Of a stretch of DNA of 64,000 nucleotides, positions 7,222 through 56,319 are shown piece by piece. A program made the position numbers and the translations under genes. Each line of letters begins with the position of its first letter. Within the stretch, counting starts at the first letter, position 1. Origin of the DNA: Moniliella sp. 'wahieum' (Eukaryota); the NCBI GenBank assembly GCA_003971905.1, contig RSEE01000022.1, positions 310,001 through 374,000 on the forward strand. Direction: 5' to 3'. Below the pieces are notes generated by a model, which saw only the letters and a list, made by a program, of their open reading frames with translations, was not told where the DNA came from and made no database searches.

Positions 7222-9396
7222 CCCCCATGTATTCCCTCATCGATCCTCATCGATCATCTTTCATGCATATGTGTCTTCTTGCTCTTCTCTCGATGTAGCA
7301 AATAAAACGGGGCTAGACTCGATCGGTTCGCCTTTTGGCCAGCTACGGAGAGCGATAATCGATAATCGATAAGGGACGCGAAGAGTGCGTGCCCAAACTA
7401 CTGACACTCCAAGCGCAGCGGGGCAACGGGAGCTCTCGCCGTACTACTATGTTGCTGAGTAACCCGTCGGTGCATCATTCTCCAATATCTGCCTCCCTCT
7501 GCAGTGGAGAGGAAACGAATATATTCTTGACTTGCCTACTTAGCTCACATATGAATAGCAGTGTGCACTCTGCAACACCATCAACTGCCTGTGCTCTCTG
7601 GTGTTCGACACAATTCTCGTTCCAACAAACGTTTAACTTGAACAAACCCCGGTGACTATAGTGACTAGTGAACGTTGAACGTTGAGTACGTGTTGAGTAC
7701 GTCTTGAGTACGTTGAACGTTGAACGTTCAACCACAGAGCATTAGACTGATGCCGTGTCAGCGCCATCATGCATGCAGCTGATCACGCATCACGCATCGC
7801 GCTGTTCTATCCGACTCTCCTCTATGTTCTGCCCCTAACGGGCTCCTCTCTTGGAATAGATCCATCACCTCCCTCTGTCTTCTTCCTTCCGTAGGCCTTT
7901 GTCCTCGCATTAACATGCCGGCGAAATGGCGCGTCGTGGATGCATGATGCACATCATGATGCACGCAATGCACACTTGTAAAGACCAGAGGACAGGCAGT
8001 TGGTAGTGAATTGCATTGCACATGAGCTACAGAGGCTAGAGAATATTCCTGCCAGCCAGGAAGGAATATTGCACGGAACAAGCCAGAAGGTTCCGGACTT
8101 TTGGGCTACCGGCGCCACTACACCAGTGTGGCGTCACAACACTGTACGCGAAAGACGCGTAACGAACCCCGAGAAACGCGTACCCCCTATTATAGCGCGG
8201 CATTTACATCGCTGTAATGACTTGGAGCTACTAACTACTAGCTCGGAACGCGTACGCGTAACTGAATAAGCACTAATAGTCGCTACAGACTAGACCCATG
8301 TTTATGACACGCTATAATTTAACGCGTAAAGCGAAAGGCCAAAGTTGACTTTTGTAGCAAAAGGAGGGACTAGTGACCCTGTCGCGTGGCACGATGGGCG
8401 CATGGCCTAAATAATACGGCAGAGGTTCTGTCATGTCACATGTCACATGTCACATCAATCATCGGTCCAAATTTCCAACCGAGTATGTGCAGCCTTGGGC
8501 GCCTAGCCGCATGTCACGTGTGATGTCACGTGGCTGGGTATGTGAGGAAGCGTGTGTGTATTGTGAAGCATGTGACAGAGCATGTCAGCCGCCAGACCTA
8601 CCCCGAACGAGGCCAACTGGCAGCCACTCGGTGCTGGGCCTTATACGCGTTGGCGTTTCAATCCTCCTCCGCACTTCTTCAGGCTCTCAGGCTCAGGCTC
8701 GGGCCCTCCCCCAACCGCTGCGCCAACGGATACAAAGGGGGCTCTCCTCTGCCCGCATCCGAGCAGGCCAGCGCACGGTCCAATCGTACTATTATCGTCC
8801 GTGCAAAAGCTTGCCTTCCTTCGACGCGTGTTGTGGGCGCATAGGCAAGCATCCGCAGCGCTGTCCTTTGCGGTCCTTGCTTTGCCACATCTGTAGCCTC
8901 TCGGATCGCAGATCCACTAGTTTCTCGTCACTCTTCCAGCTTCAGATCTCCGTAGTGTGTCACATGTGACAGGTGACAGGTGCTGTGGTGGCGTGTCCTT
9001 GTCATATGTCACACTGTATCACTCGCCCGCTCCCCAGGGCAAGTAGGGCTATAGTAGGGGCCAGCCAGCCATTTTCAAGGCGCCGGCCTCCGCCTGTCGG
9101 GCGGGCGGCGACGATCAGACCCAGCACAGTTTCATGCCGGCCTCCCAGGTGCGGACGCGCCTTTGCGGGGACGGCGCCCAGGAGACAACTGGGGCCCTCC
9201 GCGGGAGGGTTTGCTTGGTGCCGGTGATTGCGCTTGCTTCTGGCACTTCTCGGATCCCATTGCGCCCCCGTCATGGTTCTTTATAACTGAGGCGACTGCG
9301 CCTGTAAAAAGCAGGCTCGACCTCCCTTTCCCCCTCCCCCGCCGTTCTCCTCTTCTCTTCTCTTGCTCTCTCTGCGCCCGCGCCCGCTCGTTCGCC

Positions 9397-13860: not shown

Positions 13861-16360
13861 AGGGTCCTGATATCCTGGCGATCCCCTGGTTCCTTGACCT
13901 TGGTGGCGCCTCCAAGTAACCCCCGCAAGATGAACGGTTCGGTTAGACGTAGCGTTCTCCCTGTCCCAGCCTTAAGCTCTGTCAATGATATGGATTCAAA
14001 AGAGAGAAGAGAGACGGCGTCGAAAAGGAGTTGATGTGACGTACGACAAAGAGTACGGTCGCGGGGGAGGGCGGGCGTTTTGAACGTAGAACGTTAAGGT
14101 GGATCGATCGTCGATATCCGTCAATAACCGCGGGCGGGCATTATAACCCGTGCCTTCTCGCGCTCTGTCGATGGATATCTGCGCTTTTTTGGAAACGAAT
14201 ATGGTGGGGAGACCAACGGTCTGTGTTGTGGCCTCTGCTGACGCGCTGACGGCACTACATGTGGCCCCCTACTTGGATCGGCGCAAAATGCGGCAGCAAA
14301 CGCCAGATGTGATGGATGAGATCTGAGAGAGCCGGGTAGGCGAAGAAGCGTTTCCCCTGTCCTTGCCCGGAAGGAGATACAATACGTCTGCAACCGAGGA
14401 TAGGATCGATAGGTACTGTGGGTATGCATGTGACAAGTGTGTTGTGACACATGTCAGTCACACTCGAAGGTTGATGCATGATGCATGATGATGTGCAGAG
14501 ATTGGGTTAAGCTTTCGACAGGCACTTGCCCTCGGCCCAACCCAACTCGTCTGGGCCACTGACTCATTAGACGCCACACGCCACTGCTGCTGAGTACTCA
14601 GACTGAGTACCAAGTACATTGAGTACGAGTGTCCCACGTGGATCGTCTAACGTACTCTAGCGTACAGGCGCGGCAAATACGTCAAACGTTAAATTAAGGG
14701 CCATAGTAGAATGGATGGTCAACATCATTTCTCGTCATCGAGAGAATCCATTTGCATTATCGATTGTCCATCGTCGAAGACATGGCCACCATCGCGCTGC
14801 GTCTCCCTCCTGGCCGAGACCAACACTTGTGGATCTCAGTTGCTGCGCTGCAAGACTTCCTCCGTATGTTAGGGACCGCGGTACCTATAGGAAGCGCACG
14901 GCGCAGTGTCACCCACTTTTTGTATGCGATCGCAAGATGAATGATGGTGAATTCACCATCAAGAAGACCTTTACCGGGTACCAGCTTCAAGCTTCACTGG
15001 TTTTTCACAATTTCACCTGTCACAGACTTGCGCTGTTTGCACTGTTGTGCGCGCACAAAGCCCACAACCTTTTGCTCCAGTTGTGCTCCGGGGTGACGTC
15101 GAAAGGGCCAGGAAGGAAGTCCACACAGGGCACACCAAAAGAATGGGATTAGATCGATTATAGATCGTTTCGAGGTTGCCTGAAGCTTGAAGCTTGATGC
15201 TTTTGCTGGTTGAACGTTGAGAAGATGGAATATGGAAGGAGGGAACCGGGAATGTGGACTGTGGAATGTTGCAAGGTGGGTTCGGCCTCTCAGATCTCAG
15301 ACTGAGCTCTCATGGTCCAGTCTACCAAACAGGTGTTGTGTGGCAGGGTGACGCAGGTGACGCCCGGTGACGGTGGCCCAAAACACCATGATCCAGTGTT
15401 ACATCTTGCCTGTCTTTCTGCCCAGGTTGAACGGTTGAGGCTCAAGTTGAGCGCTGAGCCCAGCGCTGATCCTGTGCGAAGCCCCACACTCAACAGAGAT
15501 CTGTGGGATTTGAGGCGAGTCACTAGTCACTAGTCACTAGTCACATGTCACAGTGACTCGTGAGTCACGCGTGATTAACTCGATTAACAGGATGAACGTG
15601 AACTAGGAACTGAGCGACAGTAGGTTGCTATGTGAACAACTAGCTTTTGCATACATCCCCTCTCTCAGATCTCACCCTGCGTACTACGTCCACAAACCTC
15701 GGTAGAATCACAACTGCGGGGAAGCGCTGCGTGGCCATATTACAGTCAACGTTCAACCTGACTTATACCCTGCTCGACCTATCCCTTCAGACTGAGGCGC
15801 TGAGGCGCTGAGGCGCTGATCTCGTCTCCTCCCCGCGGCCTCGTGTTGCACCTCATGCCTCAGGCTGAGGCCTCAGGTGAGGGATCAGCGCTCAGCCACT
15901 AGTCAACTAGTCAACTAGTCAAGTGGCGTCAGTTACTGACTAAGTAGTCACGAGGAAGTGGTAGGCACTAGTCATAGTCATCGATCATCCTCAGCGCGCT
16001 CAGCGTTCTACTGGCGAAGAAGTCCGCCGGTACAATGAATCGCATGGAGGTCCTCTGAGCTTCATCGATCGGTTCTTTCCAATTCTCGATCTTATCCAAC
16101 AGGCATATAACGGCCTGACACACCGCATGGGAGGAGCATGCTGTCGCAGGAATTATATCGCGATGCTTCTGTAGGTCCACCGAGTAGAACGATATATAGC
16201 TGACACTCTCAGCGAAGAGTAAACAGCCGGAACCCCTCCACCCCTTTCACCTTCCCCCCTACCGTTCCCTCTCGACCGTGAATCGTACCCAGGCTGGACC
16301 TGGCGTGGCTGGACCACTCTCTCATACGGCTGGACCACTCTCTCATACGGCTGGACCGAC

Positions 16361-17862: not shown

Positions 17863-18332
17863 TGAGGGCGATCATGGAGGATGCGGCGAGGAAGTGGAGG
17901 GGGCATATGCAATGGGATGCGATGTGGGGAAGGACACGAGGTCTATATAGAGGGGATAAGCGTGTGGGGTTGTGTGAGCAGAACAATGGAGGGCAGAGGC
18001 GCTGGTACCAGGCAGCGCTGGTCATGTGACCCAGTGGGTAGGCCGATGGTGTGCGGTGGCGTGCTGCGGGGAGCAGAGCGTTTGAAAGTTGAGGCCCGGC
18101 GGAAGCTCCGCCTCAGCTGTGCGGCTGCGCTGCTGAGCGCTGAGCGGCTGAGCGCGCTGAGCTCCACCGCTGGCTGCCAGCGAATAACCTGTGAGTGACA
18201 TGTGACGGGGCATGTGCCAGTGCCATCACACACCCCGTTGTGCCCCACCTGGCGACCTGATCTCCCTCTGCGCACATGTCACCGTGACACCCACCACACG
18301 CGTCTGCGCTGCCCCCCCACCCCCCACCCCAC

Positions 18333-28042: not shown

Positions 28043-28795
28043 GGGGCGCGGATGGGAGGGGTGGTGGTGGTGGTTGAGGGATGGGGGCGAGATGGACGGC
28101 CGCCATGGGATGGGGCGCAGCCTCTGCTGCGCGGCCACAGCTGACAGGCAAGCCCAGGGCGGTGGGGCGCATAACGGAAGGCGTCGGGCAAACGACACAA
28201 AAGAATGGCCGCCCGCGTGCCTGATAAGATCTGCGAGCACAGAGGACACAAAAGGAAGGCGTGTGGGGTGCGCAGGCGGAATGCGGAATGGGGCTGCACA
28301 TGCCGCTGGGGGCGCAGATGCGGCAGGCGGGAAAGATGGCTCTCTGGCATGCCATTTCAAATTTCACCGCTCGCCCGGGGCTGTCTGGAGCCTTGGGGCG
28401 CGTACCTGGAAAGAACGATTGATATTGATATCGATTCTTCCCAGTGGAGCACGCATCCTGCATCCGATCTCAGAGATGCCAGGCGCAGGCCCCAGCCCCC
28501 ACAGTTTTTTGCCTGGACATCCAGCCAGGCACAGGCACAGGCGTGACATGTGACATGTGACAGGGCACGTGACGTGTCTGATTAACTGATTTGGGGTTGG
28601 GGCGGTGAGTGACGTGTGACGCGTGACGAGCGGCGGGCACTTAGCCACTGCCGGCGACGCTCGGCGTTCAGTAAGTTCAGCATTCAGCTCGACGTCGCCC
28701 ACACCTCCCGCCGCACCCCCCCCGCTGCCTCCAGCCTGCCCAGGCCCAGGCCCACCCCCGCCCATCCGATCGCACGCTGGACGCGCAGGGAGGCC

Positions 28796-32876: not shown

Positions 32877-33322
32877 GGTGTGCAGACGTTGGAAGGCGGG
32901 CGGCAGGACACGCTGGTGCTGGTGGTGTGGTGCTGGTGCTGGTGCTGGGGCTGGGCTGGGGCTGGGGGGCAGCAGACTCGAACCGAGAGACCTAATATCC
33001 TACTCGCATCCCTCGCCACTGCTGCCGACCCCGTGCGGGCAGTATCGGTACAAACGGGTATGGCCTGGTCCTTCGCACAGGCCAGGTTGGCTGAGGAGAT
33101 AAAAGGTCGGTTTAATTTAGGACGCTAGCTTTTTGATTGCATTACCCCAGCTGGAGATGATGACGTCGCTGTGATGTTGATGCCCAGGCTTCAAGCTTCT
33201 ATGGCTTGCCACGCGTGGCCGGCCCCATATGCCGCTATCCATTTCAATAACCGTTGACCATGATGATGCTCAGACGAGAGGCGTTCTTCATCCATTCCCC
33301 CACCCCCACCCGCCCCCCTGGG

Positions 33323-34568
33323 CTACGCCGTCCAGACCAACAGCGATGCGTCCCACGAGCCCGAGCACAGCGCGTGTCCGTCCGCGCTGACAGCCAGGCT
33401 GGATACCCTGCTCTGGTGGCCCACCAGGGTCGCGACCCGTTCGGCCCGCAATGTGTCCCACAACAGGATCTGGCCCATCGTAGCCCACGGCCAACAGCCG
33501 TCCGGAGCGGGCAAAGCCTAGGGTCGTCACGGGCTGCGTCAGCATCGCGTTGCTGTACGCTGCCAGTGCCCGCGGCGGCGCGCAGGTCAAACAACTTGCA
33601 CGTCGCGTCTTCCGAGCCGGTGGCCAACGCATTCCCGTCGGGAAACATGCTGATCGCATTGATGTCCGAGTCGTGGGCATGGAAGCTCTGGACGGAGCCC
33701 TTGGTGTTGGGCACACGCATGTCCCATACCTTGGCTACCCCGTCGCACGCACCCGATACAAATAAGCTGGGATGCACCGGACTCAGGTCCAGGGCCATCA
33801 CCTCGGCCGAGTGCTCAAAGTACTCGGCTTTGGTTTGGCCGGTGGCCAGGTCCCACAGCCGGCAGCTGTGGTCGCCGGACGACGTTACCATCTCTGCCTC
33901 GGAAAGAAAGCGGCAGTGGGAGACAAATGCATCGTGGCCCACCAGCTGTTGCACGGGCTGCGACGCGTACGCCATGGTCATCGCGATCTCTTCGGGCGTG
34001 GCGTGCGCATCCGTGGCAGGCAAGCGGAACAGATGACACGCATTCTCCAACCCCACGTGGCCACCATCTGACCCGAGGGCGAGTAGGCACAGTCCATCAC
34101 CCACTTGAACGGGAGCGGCAAGGCATGCACCTTGTTGTTGGTGTAGGCGTCCCAAATGATCATCTTGCCATCTTGGCTCACCGATACGAGATGGCGCGAA
34201 TCGGATGCCCAGTTGACAGCATAAATCTTGGACAAGTGGCCATTCAGTGTTCGACGCACGCGCAGCTGCGGGCCTCGCGCCAAGGGCGGCACTCCCTCCA
34301 CCCCCACTGCTCGCAACGTGGTATCTGCCAAGGCTTCCTTTTGGGCGGCCACCCGCGCCTTGAGCCCTTCGGCTGCGCTGCGGGCGGAAAGAATGCGCTG
34401 ACGGAGCGCCTCGGCCTGTTGCTGCTGCAGTGGACCGAGGGAAGCAGGGGCAATCTGCGATACACTTCCGGCGCTTCGACCTTGGGGCGCCGCCACGTGG
34501 GCCGAGTGGGGAGAAGAGGAGAGTGAGGGGTTGGCAGGCTGACGGAGGGGTGTCATGGGATAGTCCAT
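33323..34568 (-). CDS. Heterotrimeric G-protein beta subunit (WD40), divergent; frameshifted
   Basis: [101 protein letters not shown]. Confidence 0.9.
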
Positions 34569-35507
34569 CTTGCAGATCTCTAGATGGATGCCCAGTGGTG
34601 GTCGTGGCCAATGGTTCCGGTACGTGGGAAGGGCGAGATGGATTATACCATACAGGGTAGAACGAACGACGCGCATCTACCACGATCTGCCAGCCCATTT
34701 GTGGTGCAGTAGGGAAACGAGGCACTGGCCCGTCCCACCGTCCTCCCCCACGAAAGGACACAAACGGCCAGGGTCTTGGTGCCCAGCCCGCGCCGCACGG
34801 GGGGAGCCAGTGGAGCATTGCCCGTCAGCTATTGCTCAGCTTTCGCGTCAGATCTGAGTCACTCGTCACCGGTAGTCACGTGGCTGGGTTAGGAGCGATG
34901 CATGATGATCGATGAGTATTGAGTTCTTGCCTGCGCTAGCTTGAAGCTTGAAGCTTGACCAGCATCAAACTCAGCTGGGCGACCAAAGCCATAATACCTC
35001 GCAGTGCCTGTTATGTGCCCGCGCCTTTCTTGCCGCTGGCCGAGGTGTTTCTACTGTTGGTGAGGTACAAAGAGAAGCTGTGCTCGGGAAGTATGCAGTG
35101 CCACGATCCTATCCCCAAGGGGATCCTGTTCTTGCCTTGGTCGGTCCCTATGCAGAACCGAACCAAGTCGGTGCGGGGTGTGTACGTGAATTTGCACAGT
35201 GGCGTCGCCCGCTCAGAGGCGGAAACCCAGTCATAGTAGTAGAGAGTGGAGTACGGAGATGGTTGAAGGTGTCGCCAACTGCGAACCAAGAAGGGGTAGG
35301 ATGCTACGCCATGGATCCCCTCGGTCGGGTACCCGAGCGGATCCACGGGTGGTGGGTGGGGATGCCGCAGGCTGGCAAGACATACCGATAGTTTTGATAA
35401 CACCAAAGATGCAAAGGCAGAAGGGTAAAGGGCATGCTCTGATGTGAACGCCACGCGGGAGGAGGGGACACGCCAAAGCCGAGCTGTGCTAGTCTAGTCG
35501 TAGGGTG

Positions 35508-35801
35508 TCATGGCCCCATTACGCCGCCGGACTTGGCTTGGCCGGAGTTGACTCGACCGGCGGCCAGCCCAGTTTCCTGCCCTGAACTCGCGCCAGAATT
35601 CGGAGGGTCATTGGCGTCAAAGGCGGCTTGGCGAGCAGCCTCGTTGATTTCTTCGTTGCGAGCCGCGTCGTCGGCGGTGATGCCGCGGCGGGCCTCCTTC
35701 TCCAGCGTGTCCTGGTACGCCAAGACGGGCGGGATGGCGATGAAGGAGGAGAAAAGGGTGAAGCCGAGAACGATGGAGATGGGCGTGGTCCAGCGGGCCA
35801 T
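35508..35801 (-). CDS. Small (97 aa) protein with an N-terminal hydrophobic signal or TM segment
   Basis: MARWTTPISIVLGFTLFSSFIAIPPVLAY followed by a hydrophilic tail. Intact ORF with GC-rich codons. Confidence 0.55.
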   Translation of the reverse strand: MARWTTPISIVLGFTLFSSFIAIPPVLAYQDTLEKEARRGITADDAARNEEINEAARQAAFDANDPPNSGASSGQETGLAAGRVNSGQAKSGGVMGP

Positions 35802-36555
35802 CGTGCTGGACGGGACAAGGCGCGGCGTGTGGCAGACGGCTGGCAAGACTGTGCAGTTCCTGCTGGTGCCGCCCCCTTCCGGCCTAGCCCTGGCCAGAAG
35901 GCAGAACAGAACACCGGGCGAGGGCGGAACGGTGCGTGCAGCGGAATGCAATTCTCCGTTGCACCGGCTGTCGTGTCGAGGCAGGTGTCGATCCAGGGCT
36001 GGCGGGTGAGGTAATGGATGATGCAGCTGTGGCAAACGGGCGGGTGGTGTGACAGTGACACGTCAGTGTCAGTGACATGTGACATTGGGCGTGGGACAAA
36101 TGACGGTCACGCGTCGGACGGAGGAGCGCACTGCCCGCGTCGGCCAGCGCACGTCCCCACTGGGCAACGGGGGCGCTGTGGGGTGCTGCGTGGTGCTGAG
36201 GGCGTGGAAGGCGCGCCTGCTGCAAGGGACACGCCTGGCCGCTGCATGTGTGGGCCTCCCGTCACCGGCCTGCACACTGCGCCTGTGCCCGCCGGGCGCG
36301 TCGTGGCTTTCGACGGCATTCCTCAGGCGAGCGCAGGACCGGTGAGCGTCACCCGGGCGCACCAGCCTGACCCAATTGTGCCTGCAGCGAAGCGCCAGAG
36401 CGGTGCATGGCAGCTCCAGCGGGGGGCAAGCCAGCGCACCTCACCGCACCCCAGCGCACCCGACGGCGTTGGCGGCCAGCGACATCTTGGCTTTATTAAA
36501 ACGCGCTCCTCCCCGCCCACGCCTTCTCGCCCTCTCCCACCACCATCCCCACGCC

Positions 36556-37555
36556 ATGACTGTTATTGTTTGCGGAGGCGCCGGCTACATTGGCTCCCAC
36601 GCCGTCGACCAGCTCATCTCGGCTGGCTACGACGTGGCCGTGGTCGACAACCTCGTCACTGGCCATCGCGCCGCGGTCCACCCTAAGGCCCGCTTTTACG
36701 AGGGCGACCTGCGCGACCGCGCGTTTTTGGACAAGGTGTTTGCCCAGGAGAAGGACACGCAGGGCGTGATGCACTTTGCTGCGTTTAGCGTGGTTCCCCA
36801 GAGCATGAAGGACCCTCTTCTCTACTTTAACAACAACACTGCCGGCATGGTGACGCTGCTGGAGGCCATGAACGCGGCCAATGTCAAGTTCATTGTCTTT
36901 AGCTCCACCGCCGCCACCTACGGCGAGCCGAAGAGCATCCCCATCCTTGAAACCGACCCTCAGATCCCTACCAACCCCTACGGCGAGTCGAAGCTGCAAA
37001 TGGAAAAGACGATGCGGTGGTGCGACGAGGCATACGGGACCAAGTTTGTGTCGCTGCGCTACTTTAATGTGGCGGGTGCCAAGGAAGATGGATCGATTGG
37101 CGAGGACCACAACCCAGAGACGCACTTGATTCCCATTGTGCTCCAAGTCGCTTCTGGCGAGCGGGAGGGGATGCAGGTGTTTGGCGACGACTACCCTACC
37201 CGCGATGGCACCAACATTCGTGATTACATCCACGTTGTCGACCTTGTTGATGCTCACATTCTTGCCTCCAGTACCTCATCAAGGGGGGCCAGTCGGAGGC
37301 GTTCAACTTGGGCTCGGCCACTGGGTTCTCCAACTACGAAATGTTGGCTGCTGCGCGGGAGGTCACTGGCCATCCCATCCCCGCCACTGTCGGTCCCCGC
37401 CGGCCAGGCGACCCGTCGACGTTGATTGCTCGTCGGACAAGGCCAAGAAGATTCTGGGATGGAAGCCCAAGTACGATGATGTCAAGGCCATCATCAAGAC
37501 GGCCTGGACCTGGGAACAGACCCATCCCAAGGGATACGATGACAAGAAGAACTGA
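36556..37555 (+). CDS. galE: UDP-glucose 4-epimerase, bacterial (Firmicutes/lactobacillus-like) type; intronless; two apparent 1-bp indels near 37268 and 37430
   Basis: [43 protein letters not shown] (YxxxK), [43 protein letters not shown]. Confidence 0.95.
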
Positions 37556-38317
37556 ACCCCCGGTCTCGCTGGGCCTTATATCTAGGACCCCCCAAAATGG
37601 CCGGCTGGAAGTCTTCTTTTACCTTTCTACTATTTGAATTCATATGCGAAAGCGTTTCGATCCGATTGCTCTTATGTCGAAGTAAACGATAATGGACATT
37701 CGTGCCACTCCCCTACTAATCGCCGAAGTGGTGAACGTCGAAACTCGGAAGAGAACGAGTGAGATCAATTGCCGAGCGACTGCGTCCTGGCGCATTTCCA
37801 GTGTCTTGTGCCTTGAAGCATTCGCGAGTTGGTTGTGAACGCTGTCAATCTGTCACAGGGCATGTCACATGTCACATGTCAACAGGCATCCTGCCCCTGG
37901 CCACTGCCCGTTTTACAGCAACCATACGGTGGTGTCTGATGGTGGCTTGGGTTCAGTGGCATCCAGCACAACTCAAATGATCTCGTTGCCATCGTAAAAG
38001 GAAACCGTTTTCCTCGTTTACTTCTGTCCCCCCCTACCTTTTCCTCTCACAACAGGTACAGGTAATGCGTAATGCGATGAATGGATTTGGAGTAAGGTTT
38101 GGCCATTGTCAAGATGCTGTGAGGCCTGAGGCCTGGGGTAGCCCACATCAAAAAAGCTTGTCGTAGTTGTAAGAATAGGAAGACACACGCATTCATACTA
38201 GTACTTAGGGTAGCCACCGAGTCAAAGGTATAGACTCGTACGGAGCTGGGAGACATTCGATATATGCAGCAGCCAGGAATCCTGAATCCGATGGGTGAGA
38301 CAACGTGGACAATGCAG

Positions 38318-39503
38318 TTACGCCTTGTAGAAGCTCTCACTAACGTTGGGGGATTAGTATCTGTTCACCAAAAAAGCACAAGTGAGGGGGGGGGAACGGC
38401 ACGTACAGTTCTTCCACGTCCTCCTTGGATCCGAGGAAAATGCCGGTGCGGGAGTGAATGCCATCTGGCTGGATGTCCAGTACCCTCATTGTACCCGTCG
38501 TGGCCTTGCCACCCGCCTGAAACCAACCAAGTCAGTGACAATCCCCATGAAGCAAAAACAAAAAAAAAAAACAAAGACACAGAGCGCAGAGGGGCACGAC
38601 GTACCTGCTCGACCAAAAGCGACATGGGGAAGGCTTCATAGAGAATCCGCAGCTTGCCCGTCTTGCTCTTGCTATCGGCGGGGTATCCGAAAATGCCGCC
38701 ATAGAGCAAGGTGCGGTGCACGTCGGCAACCATGGAGCCAATGTAGCGTGCCGAGTAAGGCTTGCGGCCATCCTTGGGGTACTTGACGTGCTCCAGGTAC
38801 TTGAGCGTGGGCTGGTCATAGTAGGCAGAGTTTCCCTCGTTGATAGAGTAAATCTTGCCCCGCGAAGGGATTTGAATGTTGGGGTGGGTGAGGATGAACT
38901 CGCCCAAGGCATTGTCCAACGTGAATCCATTGACACCCTTGCCTGTTGTCAGCACCAAATTGGCCGAGGAGCCGTACATGCAGTAGCCTGCAGCGACCAT
39001 CTCGTTGCCCGGGCGCAGGACATCGGAGAGGGTGCCCTCGCTGTTGGGCTTGACCGCATAGATGCCAAAGATGGTGCCAATGTTGACACCAGCGTCAATG
39101 TTGGAACTGCCGTCAAGGGGGTCAACACGACACAGTACCGCCCCACCGTGGCCTTGGGTGAGTCTTTGACAAAGATGGCCTGCTCCAGCTCTTCCGACAC
39201 GAGCACCGCAGTCTTGCCACTGGCACGGAGTGCGTTGATCATAATCTCGTTGCTGAGCACGTCCAATTTCTTCTGGTCCTCCCCCTGCACATTCTCAGCG
39301 CCGGCAAGACCAACCAGGTTGATCAAGCTGGCCTTGCGCACATTGGACTCGATAAACTTGCACGTGGTTTGGAGCGCGGTGAGGAGGATGGTCAGGTCGC
39401 CCGATACATCCTCGTTGGCCATCCGCGCCTCAATTTCCGACTGGAGCACCCAGCGTGTGAGGGTGATGAGGTCGGTCTCGGGGGGGAAGTAGTCGGCGGT
39501 CAT
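38318..39503 (-). CDS. FBP1: Fructose-1,6-bisphosphatase class I, with two introns near the 3' end (~38514-38604 and ~38341-38406)
   Basis: [79 protein letters not shown]. Confidence 0.95.
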
Positions 39504-41356
39504 GACAGGCAGGCAGAAGAAGGCAAGCAGAGGGGGAAGAGGGGAGGATGGGGGGGAGAGGGAAGAAGGAGGAAAGACGGTCCAAGCGACCCGAGAAGCG
39601 TCGGCTCTTTTAAAGCACCGCCGCTGCCACCTGCCACCATACCGGCAACTCAAGCCATTCACGCCCAGGCCACCGCGGGAGTGTGTCGCCACCAGCCGCC
39701 TTGTTTGTGGCCGCTCAGCTGAGCGCTCAACGCGGCTTGCAGCTTGAAGCATGACTCGTTGGCCGCAGAAGCGGGGAAACGCGGGGTGTGGGGAAGGCAC
39801 AGCGCCAGTATCCGCGTCTCGGCTCCATGCGGTCCGATCGGGGCGGCGACAGTGGCGCCGGGCGGGCACCCGAGGTGCTTGCGGCAGTGGTGAGGAGTGC
39901 TGAGCCGACGCGGTGCCCGAGCGCGGGGTCACACTGGCCCCCTGCCTGCGGCCCTGGCGATGCAGGGTGCTGTCCAAGGCGCGGCGCGTGCATGCGGAGC
40001 TGGATCCTGGGGAGCAGCCGGGGGGCAGCATGGGGCAGCCGAAGGGACGCCCCCCCTGCAGCTGGCAGGCCCCCAGCCTCCCCCCGCATGCAGCACCTGC
40101 CGCACCGCGCATGGCCTGCGTGGCCACGGCATGGCCACTGCCTGGCCCCTGCATGCCCCCGCACCAGGCGCGTGCCTGGTGCATCCGGGACGCTCCGGGC
40201 GCCGCATCGTACCGCCCTCCCGCCCCATCGCACTGGGCCATGCACATCCAATATCCACGCTCCAAACTCCAAGCTAGGTTCAAGCCGCCCGCCACCCGCC
40301 GCCCGCCGCGCAGACACTGCCCGAGACACATACCGCCGCACGAAGCACAGCGCGGCATGCTGCGCAACCTACTTGATTCATGATTAATCATCAAAATCAT
40401 CCGCCAGCATCTCCTGCCCTGGGCAATGTGCTTTTGGCCCCGCACCCACACCTCCAGCTGCTGAGCCTGAAGCTTACTTGACCATGTCTCGTCGCGTACC
40501 TGCGTCCATATCGCGAAACGGGGAAAGCTTATTGGAGCGATACGAAGAGCCAAAGTTAGTTGCGAGGACGACTGCAATCCACAAAACGGGTTTTGTTTGG
40601 GAGGCAAAGAATAGGGGAAGAAAAGGTGTGCTCGCGTAGGGGTATAGAGACAGCCATTGGTTCCGAGGATATTGTGTTGCATCCACGTTTCCCTCGTTCT
40701 TGTCCATGGATCATAATTGCCGAGATGAGGTTTGCCGTGTGCGAGATGAGGAAGGTGGGGAGAGGCGGGTAGGCCATCAGAAGCAATCGCGTTTGCTTGA
40801 GTGTGGGTACACCAACCCATCATTAGTCGGCAAAAGGGGCCCGCTTCACTTTTTTGAGTGTAAGGGACTCAAGTCGCTATGGCATAGTCGAGTGATGCCT
40901 ACTAACTCGAGGAATTCGAGCAAATACCGAAACATTATGTCCCCACATGGACTATACCTCTCGGTTCCGATGCAAACTATCATTAAGGAATGACTCATTT
41001 GGATGTTCCAGAACAAGACAAAACGCCCCCCCCAACCCGCCTCTTACCGACAGGCCTTCTAATACCACTGCCTCATCCCGGGGTATCGAGCATGGCGTAT
41101 GGCATCGAAGGGTGGGATGCAATGGCAGTTGAGTTTTGCGTGATGCGTAGATGATGATGCGTAGATGATTGGATAACAGGGAGGGGCAAGCACAGGGAAG
41201 AATGCGGGTGGGAGAGAGGGTGGGGGTGAAGGTTGAACTGTGGGCACTGTTTAAAGCAAGAAGTGCAATGGGCAATGCAGTGTGGGACAGCCACCCGCGA
41301 GCTGCAGTCCAACATCGTGAATGATAAGAAGGAGAGGGGATAAACGAGGGAACACA

Positions 41357-43433: not shown

Positions 43434-43689
43434 TTTGGTGGATGCGACGGCAGGGACTTGGCCTGAGGCGGCAACACCTGGTGGGCTGAAGGGGAAGGCG
43501 ATGCGTTCCCTGGATGAGTTGCGCGCGCTACCAGCTGCTTGCGGCGGGCTTGGAGAGACGGTGGTAGACCAAAGGAGAAATTGGGCGCATGGGTTTGGGT
43601 TTGTGCACGATGGCCCAATTATAGGTGTACCTGTTCGCGTTGCCGACGGAGTGATGGCATCGGTGACGGGGAGAAGTCACATGTCACCT

Positions 43690-49802: not shown

Positions 49803-51483
49803 ATGGCCGGCCGCTTGGGTATGATGCAACCCCCTGTCTTTGTCCTCCGGGAGGGCACCGATACGTCCCAAGGAACAGGCCAGTTGCTGAGCAACATTGG
49901 TGCGTGCCAAACCGTTGTTGATTGCGTCGCCTCAACCCTTGGCCCCCCGGGATGGACAAGCTTATCATTGACAGCCGGGGCAAGAGCACCATCTCCAACG
50001 ACGGCGCGACGATTCTCAAGCTACTCGAGATTGTTCATCCTGCTGCGCGTACCCTGGTGGATATTGCCCGGGCTCAAGATGCCGAGGTCGGAGACGGGAC
50101 GACGTCTGTTGTGCTCCTGGCCGGTGAGATGCTCAAGGAAGCCCGCCCCTTTGTTGAGGATGGCGTTTCGCCCCACATCATTATCCGTGCCTTCCGCACT
50201 GCGGCTCAACTGGCTGTCGAGCGCGTCAAGCAACTGTCCGTCGCTATTGACCGCAACGATCCCGAGGGCTTCCGCGACCTGCTGATGAAATGCGCCGGTA
50301 CGGCTATGAGCTCCAAGTTGATCGTCTCACAGCGCGCTTTCTTTAGCAACATGGTTGTCGACGCCGTTCAGGCACTGGACCAGGATGATCTAGACGAGAA
50401 CCTGATTGGAGTCAAAAAGGTGCCCGGCGGTGGGATGCAAGATTCCGTCTTGGTCAAGGGCGTAGCGTTTAAGAAGACGTTTGCCTATGCTGGCTTTGAG
50501 CAACAGCCAAACGGTTCGCCAACCCCAGATTCTCAATCTCAATGTGGAGCTTGAGTGAAGGCGGAGAAGGACAATGCTGAGGTTCGGATCAATGAAGTGA
50601 GCGAGTACCAAGCTATCGTCGATGCCGAGTGGAACATTATCTATGCCAAACTCGAAGCGATCGTCAAATCGGGGGCACAGGTGGTCTTGTCCAAGTTGCC
50701 CATTGGCGATCTGGCTACACAGTACTTTGCCGACCGCAACATCTTCTGTGGGGCCGTGTCGCAGCCGATGACATGCAACGCGTGATTCAAGCTGTAGGGG
50801 GTTCGGTGCAGTCAACCGTATCTGACCTACGCCCGGAGCACCTCGGTACTTGCGAGCTGTTCGAGGAGCGCCAGATCGGCTCGGAGCGATTCAATCTTTT
50901 CGAAGGCTGTCATTCTGCCAAAACCTGCACCCTTATCCTCCGTGGCGGGGCTGAGCAGTTCATTGCTGAGGTGGAGCGCTCCCTCCACGATGCCATCATG
51001 ATCGTCAAGCGTGCGATCAAGAATGGTTCGATCGTTGCCGGCGGTGGCGCTGTGGAGATGGAACTGTCCAAGTATCTGCGTGATTACGCACGGACCATCC
51101 AGGGGAAACAGCAGCTAATCATTGGCGCCTTTGCCAAGGCGCTCGAAGTGATTCCGCGGCAAATTGCAGACAATGCCGGGCTGGATGCTACGGATTTGTT
51201 GAATCAGCTGAGGATGCGGCATGCTCAAGGCCATGCTTGGGATGGGATTGATATGGATACCGACGGGGTGGCTAACAACTTGGAAAAGTTCGTGTGGGAG
51301 CCATCGCTGGTCAAGATCAACGCCATTTCTTCAGCTGCAGAAGCTGCCACTCTCATCCTTTCCGTCGATGAGACGATCAAGAACCAGCAGTCCGAGCGAC
51401 CCAACCCAGGACCCCCAGCGCCGCCTGGGACTGCGCAGCGCGCGTTGCGCGGGGCCGGTCGCCGAACCGGTGGGCGACGGTAA
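49803..51483 (+). CDS. CCT7: T-complex protein 1 subunit eta (CCT chaperonin); frameshifted
   Basis: [84 protein letters not shown]. Confidence 0.95.
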
Positions 51484-54524: not shown

Positions 54525-56319
54525 ATCCCTTTCATCGATCAATTTCAATTTCATCAGCCATCGATGCGTGTGATGCGTGTGATACAGACACCTGAAACGC
54601 ATGACATGTGACATGGAGGCCCGTGCGTCTTGTCCAGTACCGTCCTATCTCATGCGCCTATTACCTCCTCTCTCCCCTCGCCCTCCCAATGCAGGCAGCA
54701 ACCCATCGAAACCGCCATAGCCGCGCCCCGTCCCTAGCGCTGCGTCCAGCCCACCTGCGCGCGGACCAATGGCGTGAGTTGCCATCCAACGCACGGGCTG
54801 GCACGCTCTGCCATCAGCGCCGACGTGCCGGGCTCAGCACTGGCTCCTCCTCGGCTGGCGCCCGCGCTCCACCCCCCCACCGGAGGGTAAGCCTGCGCTC
54901 CCCATCGCGTACCGAGGCATGTTCGCCGATTCGCGCCGCAGGCAGCGGCGGCGGCAGCATAACGCGCGCCCCATGGTAGCCCCCCGGGCTGGCGCGCAGC
55001 TGCGGCGAGGCCGTGTCGCGAAGCCGCTGATATCTACCACCACCGAAAACTCGTTGGTCCGAGGCGGAGCGAACGAACGAGGTCGGCTTGGCGATGGCAA
55101 CAGTAAACGGTAACGGTACCGTACCGGTGGGGATGACGTACAAGCTTCGCCGCTCTGGCGGGAGGAGGGGGAGGTAGACAGAGGACCCGGTGAGGTGGGA
55201 GGATACTCGGGTGCCGCGTGTCCGCCAACGACGCGGGAACAAAGGACGGAGGAGGGCATGTCTGGGTGGGCCAAGACGGGTGACATGGTTGTCATGCTGC
55301 CGCCCAAATGCGACAGGGCAGGTACAGGAGGCGCTACAGTGGGAATCCTATGCGCGTAGGATGCGGTCTCGGCAGCGTAGTTGCGTCCCAACGTTTGGAA
55401 ACGCTCTGGAGGCAGATGGGAGAGGCGGGCGATGGATGCGTGGAGACGTGGAGGGGGTTAAGGAGGTGGCTCAGGGGACTGGAGGGGGACAAGGGATTGT
55501 GTTGGTACGTGGGACCACAGATTAGATTCGGTGCGAGTTGAGGACTGAGTTTGGAACGGGGTCCGAGGTTGAGAGTGTAACGCAAGAGGGAGAGCAGGCT
55601 ACTCGGTTCGCACTGGTGGGCTGAGAGAGTGCCTTGTGGCCATGGAGAGGGCGCTTGCCGCTTCTGTTGCCAGCGTGGGTGCGGGTGTCGAGGGGGGCAC
55701 GAAAGGAGCGATAAACTTCTCGCCGCGGGTGACAAACGGACGAAGACGAGCTTAATGGGGAGTCCACCGCTCAAGGGGGTCCATCTCGACCAAGCCCTGC
55801 AGAAAGTCAATGAAGCAAGCACGCTGAGTTTGTTCTGGATCGATCTTTCTATCCCGCTAAACAACCAATATGAAGAGCGCCTAGCAGATTCGGGGCAACC
55901 GAGCATGCTGGTCGTTTTGAATTTATGGCCAGACTAGACGTTGGCTCAAAAAGCCAGTGAAGCGTGCACACCACTGGACCCATGACGCGACGGCAGCTAA
56001 CATTTGCATCCTGAGGCAGACGTCCTTGTGAGGCTCCAGCGAGTCGGTCCCCACAGGGCCGCAGTAGCGGTGCCTGGCCTGAGGAGACCAAATCGATTTG
56101 GACAAAGAGGCGACGGCGGGGGCGGAGCAGGCGGAGAAGGGTGAGCAACCCTACCGAGAAACGCGAAATGCTGCGGGTGCGTTCGCACTGCCCCTCTGCC
56201 TGGTTCTGTCCAACCCTACTGCGGGGCGCGGAGGTGGGCACGGCTGCGAGCGCTGCGCTTGCCCATGGCCGCCGTCGCTGGGTCTGGTGGCACTGAGACG
56301 AGCCACCAACCCAACTGCC

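Follow-up and report, generated by a model that had tools for sequence, protein, structure and literature searches.

It is well established that single metabolic genes can pass from bacteria to fungi. A 2024 survey (PMC11708051) counts 20,093 bacteria-derived genes in 750 fungal genomes. The accessible portion of its supplementary file 3, which covers 829 fungal genomes, classes as prokaryote-derived and GalE-like two genes, 5978_t and 6700_t (Event1556), from Moniliella sp. 'wahieum' (GCA_003971905.1). The best matches given there for this pair of genes are the GalE proteins from Lentilactobacillus diolivorans (59.9%) and Fructilactobacillus sp. (61.9%). Among the '4-epimerase' rows listed in that portion, only two of 16 have a best match in the Lactobacillaceae, and both belong to Moniliella sp. 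'wahieum' (PMC11708051). The main text of the survey does not contain the word 'epimerase'. These two supplementary rows of PMC11708051 are the only trace we found, in the portions of the literature available, of a galE transfer from Lactobacillaceae to fungi, and no paper discussing such a transfer was found. The accessible part of a study of fungal UDP-glucose 4-epimerases (UGE) describes their groups as polyphyletic and names no such transfer (PMC8092308).

A related precedent comes from Malassezia, where, according to the portion of the report available, a bacterial flavohemoglobin gene has been domesticated (bioRxiv 10.1101/2020.01.28.923367). Like the gene described below, as far as that portion goes, it is a single bacterial metabolic gene in a yeast of the Ustilaginomycotina; the gene and its donor differ. 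The words epimerase, galE and Lactobacill are absent from that report.

Here we describe a galE gene in a window of 64,000 nucleotides, by which we mean the whole stretch of DNA analysed and to which all positions refer. As in the two Moniliella genes entered in the available rows of PMC11708051, the best matches lie in the Lactobacillaceae, and Moniliella falls in the same subphylum as that indicated by the fructose-1,6-bisphosphatase (FBPase) gene of the window. For this reason the window galE and Event1556 may represent the same or a sister event. However, the identities listed for the Moniliella genes (59.9% and 61.9%) are lower than the 76-80% found for the window galE, a comparison of those listed values and not of sequences.

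The galE gene and its frame breaks

Frame reading and profile matching identified galE on the forward strand as an intronless gene of about 333 codons (Table 1). As assembled it is not one uninterrupted reading frame. It falls into three pieces, and bacterial GalE queries are collinear over all of them in tblastn searches. Since the three pieces continue a single profile, TIGR01179, in collinear order, the gene is complete, contains no intron and has exactly two one-base breaks. This bears out the initial annotation, which had claimed an intronless epimerase of about 330 amino acids and implied two indels in its reading frame. The peptides quoted in that annotation are all present, in frame 1 and in a second frame.

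Table 1. Features of the galE locus and of the surrounding window.
Feature	Position in window	Strand	Description
galE	36556-37555	+	about 333 codons, intronless
galE piece 1	36556-37266	+	237 codons; TIGR01179 profile positions 2-241; Pfam Epimerase 1.9e-56
galE piece 2	about 37263-37430 (distinct part from 37269)	+	begins QYLIKGG; TIGR01179 profile positions 242-296, E 3.1e-12
galE piece 3	37430-37552 (distinct part from 37433)	+	ends KGYDDKKN; TIGR01179 positions 298-331, E 7e-8
galE stop	37553-37555	+	TGA
Frame break 1	37264-37269	+	one base missing at the GCC-TCC junction; Ala-Leu in relatives
Frame break 2	37428-37433	+	one T missing at the GCT-TCG junction (Ala-Ser)
Upstream element	about 36493-36501		tttattaaa
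SUN-domain gene	about 30131		split across frames
G-beta (heterotrimeric G-protein beta subunit)	33247-34824	-	PF25391 WD40_Gbeta profile 7-123, 137-258, 296-339 in three frame pieces
FBPase (fructose-1,6-bisphosphatase)	about 38394-39494	-	Pfam FBPase and FBPase_C; tblastn with P0129, P0133
FBPase intron	38340-38406		67 nt, GT..AG
FBPase gap	38520-38604		85 nt, between two matched protein parts; read as an intron
FBPase frame shift	about 39123		intron-free; GTGTT-GAC junction; Val-Phe-Asp in relatives
CCT chaperonin	49922-51480	+	Pfam profile 11-193, 214-276, 278-489 in different frames
GTGACAT tandem motif sites	8433-8455, 8957-9012, 15010-15023, 15538-15551, 18195-18208
GTGACAT tandem motif sites	28543-28563, 36072-36085, 37862-37882, 43674-43687, 54601-54614

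The first piece alone (residues 1-237) scores 303.3 bits against TIGR01179, above the curated cut-off of 262.3 bits, and the second and third pieces add 46 and 31.7 bits. In enzymes of the SDR family the Gly-rich NAD-binding motif is GxxGxxG and the catalytic centre consists of Ser and Tyr-x3-Lys. In the galE protein the NAD-binding sequence GGAGYIGSH occupies residues 7-15, SSTAATYG begins at residue 116, and YGESK of the catalytic centre lies at residues 142-146. When the protein is read through both breaks and compared with 93 bacterial GalE rows, it departs from none of the 72 invariant columns and from none of the 45 columns conserved at 95% or more (117 of 117 kept). An Atlas cluster look-up returned 'Bacillota UDP-glucose 4-epimerase'. 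From its sequence, the predicted galE product is a UDP-glucose 4-epimerase of the TIGR01179 / extended SDR family.

Among solved chains the best match to the protein is 2c20, which we take to be a Bacillus enzyme, at 279.5 bits. Yeast GAL10 (1z45) follows at 192 bits, human GALE (1ek5) at 178 bits and 4lis, presumably UgeA of Aspergillus nidulans, at 170.8 bits. The native fungal enzymes 1z45 and 4lis share the SDR fold family with the window galE and presumably catalyze the same reaction, but galE is far nearer to the bacterial chain than to either of them and has no mutarotase fusion.

The start codon at 36556 lies in the context cacgccATGac, and no AGGAGG-like (Shine-Dalgarno) stretch is found in the sequence upstream of it. 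A tttattaaa element is present about 60 nt 5' of the start (TTTATTAAA; Table 1). The GCCATG context without a Shine-Dalgarno sequence and the upstream element had both been pointed out in the initial annotation, and both are found as described. The GC content of galE is 58.6%, compared with 59.4% for the whole window.

The two breaks were compared with contigs from two public runs of one study, X1 and X2. These contigs are short, and the two runs match shares of 0.09 and 0.07 of the window; stretches without such cover, including 33500-36541, are uninformative. Over 293 nt, one X1 contig (record 2, 37281-37573) differs from the window at two letters and one gap, the gap side including one more T after 37429 in the contig. 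The T missing at the second break is also present in two X2 contigs. At the first break an X2 contig that is 82% identical has an extra base (T behind 37265), and no near-identical contig covers this site.

Several other genes of the window are broken in a similar manner. The profile of the CCT chaperonin is matched collinearly across three or more frames with no intron-sized gaps, and roughly four frame shifts fall between about 50490 and 50790. FBPase contains an intron-free frame shift, and both the G-beta and the SUN-domain genes are split across frames as well (Table 1). Because of these similar breaks, the X1 contig that lacks the second break, and the retention of all conserved columns, we read the breaks in galE as probable errors of assembly, each a one-base deletion left by a lack of polishing, and not as the marks of a dead gene. 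One-base deletions are abundant in this assembly, and automatic annotation would turn many essential genes, together with galE, into false pseudogenes.

Relatives and phylogeny of the epimerase

All of the named proteins among the best 120 matches to the first 237 residues are Lactobacillaceae GalE, with identities of 73-80%, and no fungal protein is present by name among these 120. GalE of Levilactobacillus is 78-80% identical over this part, with Levilactobacillus brevis at 80%. The only closer match among the 120 is P0001, an uninterrupted protein of 334 amino acids that is known from public run assemblies only and is 94% identical over the first 237 residues and 93.3% identical to the read-through protein. 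From their sequences we infer a fungal origin of P0001 and of the X1 and X2 contigs. Over the full length, the best of 93 bacterial rows is Lentilactobacillus parafarraginis at 76.7%, and several Levilactobacillus and Lactiplantibacillus rows reach 75.5-75.8%. In a scan of prokaryote genomes that took one genome per species, identity across 80 loci is highest in Levilactobacillus (78-79%) and then declines to about 60% over the remaining Lactobacillaceae, Enterococcus, Listeria, Bacillaceae and Clostridia.

A scan of metagenomes (80 loci) yielded bacterial-type relatives only, the best at 76%, and a second fungal galE locus with its flanks was not found among them. The eukaryotic GalE among the 120 longer proteins listed are those of chytrids, Paratrimastix and an ostracod; neither a Gal10-type (mutarotase) fusion nor a fused close relative occurs among these 120.

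Two side observations were made in these scans. In P0259, P0264-P0267 and P0273, GalE is joined in one protein to domains of the galactokinase or GalT type (PF01087/PF02744); these proteins are bacterial or metagenomic, 57-62% identical to the query, and none is near the fungal gene. In addition, a metagenome-assembled genome labelled Caulobacteraceae carries a Bacillota-type galE (locus L126; 68% identity to the query), owing either to a transfer or to faulty binning.

GalE proteins of Levilactobacillus, Lentilactobacillus and Lactiplantibacillus have the same length of 333-334 amino acids as the window galE and are collinear with it from start to stop. The Lactobacillaceae rows that were checked show 74.5-76.7% full-length identity, and their NAD and Ser/Tyr/Lys motifs are identical to those of galE. 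Unlike its Lactobacillaceae counterparts, however, the window galE lies, as assembled, on a fungal chromosome, uses host-like codons, lacks a Shine-Dalgarno sequence and sits on a long stem of its own.

A maximum likelihood tree was built from 100 rows and 332 columns. The rows comprise the window galE (read through with X at both breaks), P0001, the 80 genome loci, 13 named Lactobacillaceae proteins, and five eukaryotic GalE (three chytrids, Paratrimastix and the ostracod, with no Dikarya Uge/Gal10 among them). The window galE and P0001 pair with support of 100/100 on a stem of 0.50 changes per column. The pair falls within a clade of 55 rows (97/97) that otherwise consists of Lactobacillaceae GalE with nested Bifidobacteriaceae. 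This clade in turn lies inside a clade of 66 rows (99/95) that adds Lactococcus, Pseudolactococcus, Staphylococcus, Enterococcus, Vagococcus, Listeria and a Lactobacillales metagenome-assembled genome. The three chytrid rows are far from the window galE. Forcing the pair together with the five eukaryotic rows costs 33.6 lnL units (p-AU 0.02), in a comparison that involves long branches and no Dikarya rows. In this tree the window galE thus groups with Lactobacillaceae GalE and away from the five eukaryotic rows.

The position of the pair relative to the Lactobacillaceae is less firm. The apparent sister, Lactobacillus sp. S2-2, has support of 79/45, and a tree in which the pair is held outside the 53 Lactobacillaceae/Bifidobacteriaceae rows is 10.9 lnL units better than the free tree (p-AU 0.743). 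Since this outside placement is not rejected, a donor within the sampled Lactobacillaceae and a donor sister to them are both allowed. The description of the protein in the initial annotation as a 'Lactobacillus-type' GalE therefore holds at the family level, but a placement within the Lactobacillaceae is unsupported.

As a separate observation, the galE genes of Bifidobacteriaceae (L107 from Pseudoscardovia; L113-L116 from Bifidobacterium) nest in the Liquorilactobacillus/Ligilactobacillus branch (support 99, quick tree). This nesting suggests a separate transfer between bacterial phyla.

Genomic context, codon usage and inheritance

Both flanking genes are fungal. The initial annotation had placed G-beta upstream and an intron-containing FBP1 downstream, and the two were recovered at these positions. 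FBPase contains one GT..AG intron, and a second gap between its matched protein parts is probably an intron as well (Table 1). The best named matches of FBPase are Kalmanozyma brasiliensis (86%) and Malassezia sympodialis, Violaceomyces and Tilletiopsis (83%). As these belong to the Ustilaginomycotina, the host lineage points to that subphylum. Eukaryotic or fungal genes occur throughout the window and include, in addition to those of SUN, G-beta, FBPase and CCT, genes for UCH, a kinase, Ulp1, TatD and Kae1/TsaD, a Zn2Cys6 factor, and EH, UBA and GH31 proteins. We found no other bacterial gene near galE, in that no ORF of eight Lactobacillaceae galE loci, apart from galE itself, matches the window. 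The linkage of galE to G-beta and FBPase is present in the assembled window; none of the independent contigs spans the distance from galE to an adjacent gene.

The GC content at third codon positions (GC3) is 0.767 in galE, compared with 0.724 in the host (ten segments, 1182 codons pooled) and 0.57-0.67 in three Levilactobacillus galE genes. Relative synonymous codon usage (RSCU) in galE correlates with that of the host at r 0.86 and with that of Levilactobacillus galE at r 0.33. No composition step is seen at the edges of the gene, and its nucleotide identity to 80 bacterial galE genes does not exceed 70%. In both base composition and codon usage the gene is ameliorated to its host, in agreement with the host-like codons noted in the initial annotation.

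Contigs from the public runs cover parts of the locus. In X1, short contigs match the 3' part of galE, the spacer (37660-38038) and FBPase at about 99% identity. The X2 galE contig of 1030 nt has 171 differences over 971 nt (82%), and the X2 FBPase contigs are 81-83% identical to the window. Thus galE and FBPase diverge equally in X2, as expected if the two were inherited together. Among the 35 X2 galE differences listed (the list gives 40 of 441 differences), 29 fall at third codon positions. We consider these to be signs that galE may be kept under purifying selection and vertically inherited. X2 contains at least three versions of a GC-rich galE, with identities to the window of about 98%, 82% and 80%; they may represent either several related organisms in the sample or paralogues. 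Although one X2 contig skips the 67-nt FBPase intron, a different stretch of 103 letters is retained in another contig at the site of the other intron, and X2 was therefore not taken to be RNA.

A perfect inverted repeat of 14 nt brackets galE (36072-36085 and 37862-37875). A reading of this repeat as the two ends of a mobile element was considered and set aside, as the underlying heptamer-tandem motif is scattered across the window. This motif, a partly palindromic tandem of GTGACAT, has 20 matches with up to two mismatches, compared with 0.35 expected from shuffles (Table 1). It resembles a dispersed or regulatory element of the host genome at large and not a mobile-element end specific to galE. 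We also observed a GC-rich stretch at 39600-40400, just upstream of the FBPase start, that reaches 0.755 in 400-nt windows and contains long spurious ORFs on both strands.

Origin of galE

The bacteria-to-fungus transfer proposed in the initial annotation is supported by the relatives of galE, by the maximum likelihood tree with its AU test, and by the host context. We consider it very likely that galE is a bacterial gene, acquired from within or next to the Lactobacillaceae and kept in a fungus of the Ustilaginomycotina type, where it presumably works and its breaks are assembly errors. A UDP-glucose 4-epimerase gene would have come from a bacterium of, or next to, this family, and the epimerase gene alone would have been retained. 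Its base composition and codon usage would then have come to match those of its host, and purifying selection would have maintained it through the division of the host lineage into two or more forms. The gene is proposed to be transcribed from host signals. Its product begins at the same point as the bacterial proteins, and, as there is neither an intron nor an N-terminal extension, it is presumably cytosolic. With bound NAD+ and the Ser / Tyr-x3-Lys centre, the enzyme is predicted to interconvert UDP-glucose and UDP-galactose, with a putative role in galactose use or in the synthesis of galactose-containing wall material and glycoconjugates. The role proposed in the initial annotation, in which galE may supply or replace the Leloir or UDP-Gal/GalNAc function, is likewise putative.

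The two frame breaks in the assembled gene, the first of which (near 37266) lies where no near-identical contig is available, could also be explained by a recently inactivated xenolog, in which the transfer is real, both one-base deletions are genuine in the strain and an enzyme would no longer be produced. We regard this as unlikely, since the essential host genes for CCT, FBPase, G-beta and SUN break likewise, the T absent from the second break is present in the contig that differs by two mismatches over 293 nt, all 117 conserved columns are kept, and P0001 is intact. It is considerably less probable that the gene results from bacterial contamination or a chimeric join, with a Lactobacillaceae fragment stitched into a fungal contig. 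Continuity across 34.5-39.5 kb is provided by the visibly error-prone assembly alone. However, codon usage and GC3 follow the host and not the Lactobacillaceae, and neither bacterial neighbour genes nor a composition step at the edges are seen. In addition, contigs of other public runs contain the same GC-rich galE alongside the host FBPase and spacer. Identities to the 80 bacterial galE compared reach at most 70% for nucleotides and 80% for protein, so that no sampled bacterium could be the contaminant.

The remaining explanations concern the route by which the gene arrived. That galE is a vertically inherited fungal epimerase merely resembling bacterial GalE seems to us scarcely credible, given 76-80% identity to Lactobacillaceae GalE and scores of 192 and 170.8 bits for the fungal chains against 279.5 bits for the bacterial one. 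Fungal UGE groups are, in the part of PMC8092308 available, polyphyletic and weakly structured, and our tree was built without Dikarya epimerases, both of which favour vertical descent; yet no named fungal protein is present among the best 120 matches the chytrids are far off, and the AU test with the five eukaryotic rows gives p-AU 0.02. A second-hand arrival, in which the bacterial galE would first have entered another eukaryote and then reached the host lineage by eukaryote-to-eukaryote transfer, would fit the long stem (0.50) and a bacterial sister that is not settled. It too is improbable, about as much so as contamination, because the best 120 matches include no other eukaryotic carrier, and neither do the metagenome scan (80 loci, the best at 76%) and the Atlas clusters, which are of Bacillota. 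We retain direct acquisition from, or from next to, the Lactobacillaceae as the preferred explanation.

A more far-reaching version of this explanation is possible, though on balance doubtful: a Lactobacillaceae-type GalE may have replaced the native epimerase throughout a lineage, perhaps a Moniliella-like one, and may since have been inherited vertically and duplicated, serving as the sole source of UDP-galactose for galactose use and wall galactofuranose. Such a lineage might live alongside lactic acid bacteria in habitats that are sugary or fermenting. A replacement would be compatible with the matched divergence of galE and FBPase, with functional columns that are fully conserved, and with the listing of two copies in Moniliella sp. 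'wahieum'.

The case combines an unusually high identity to the donor family (76-80%) with codon usage that is fully recast, and the donor group is clear. The transfer of galE points to an ecological link between yeasts of the Ustilaginomycotina and lactic acid bacteria. If galE is the only UDP-glucose 4-epimerase of its host, it would be a clean case of a core nucleotide-sugar step that is run by a bacterial replacement.
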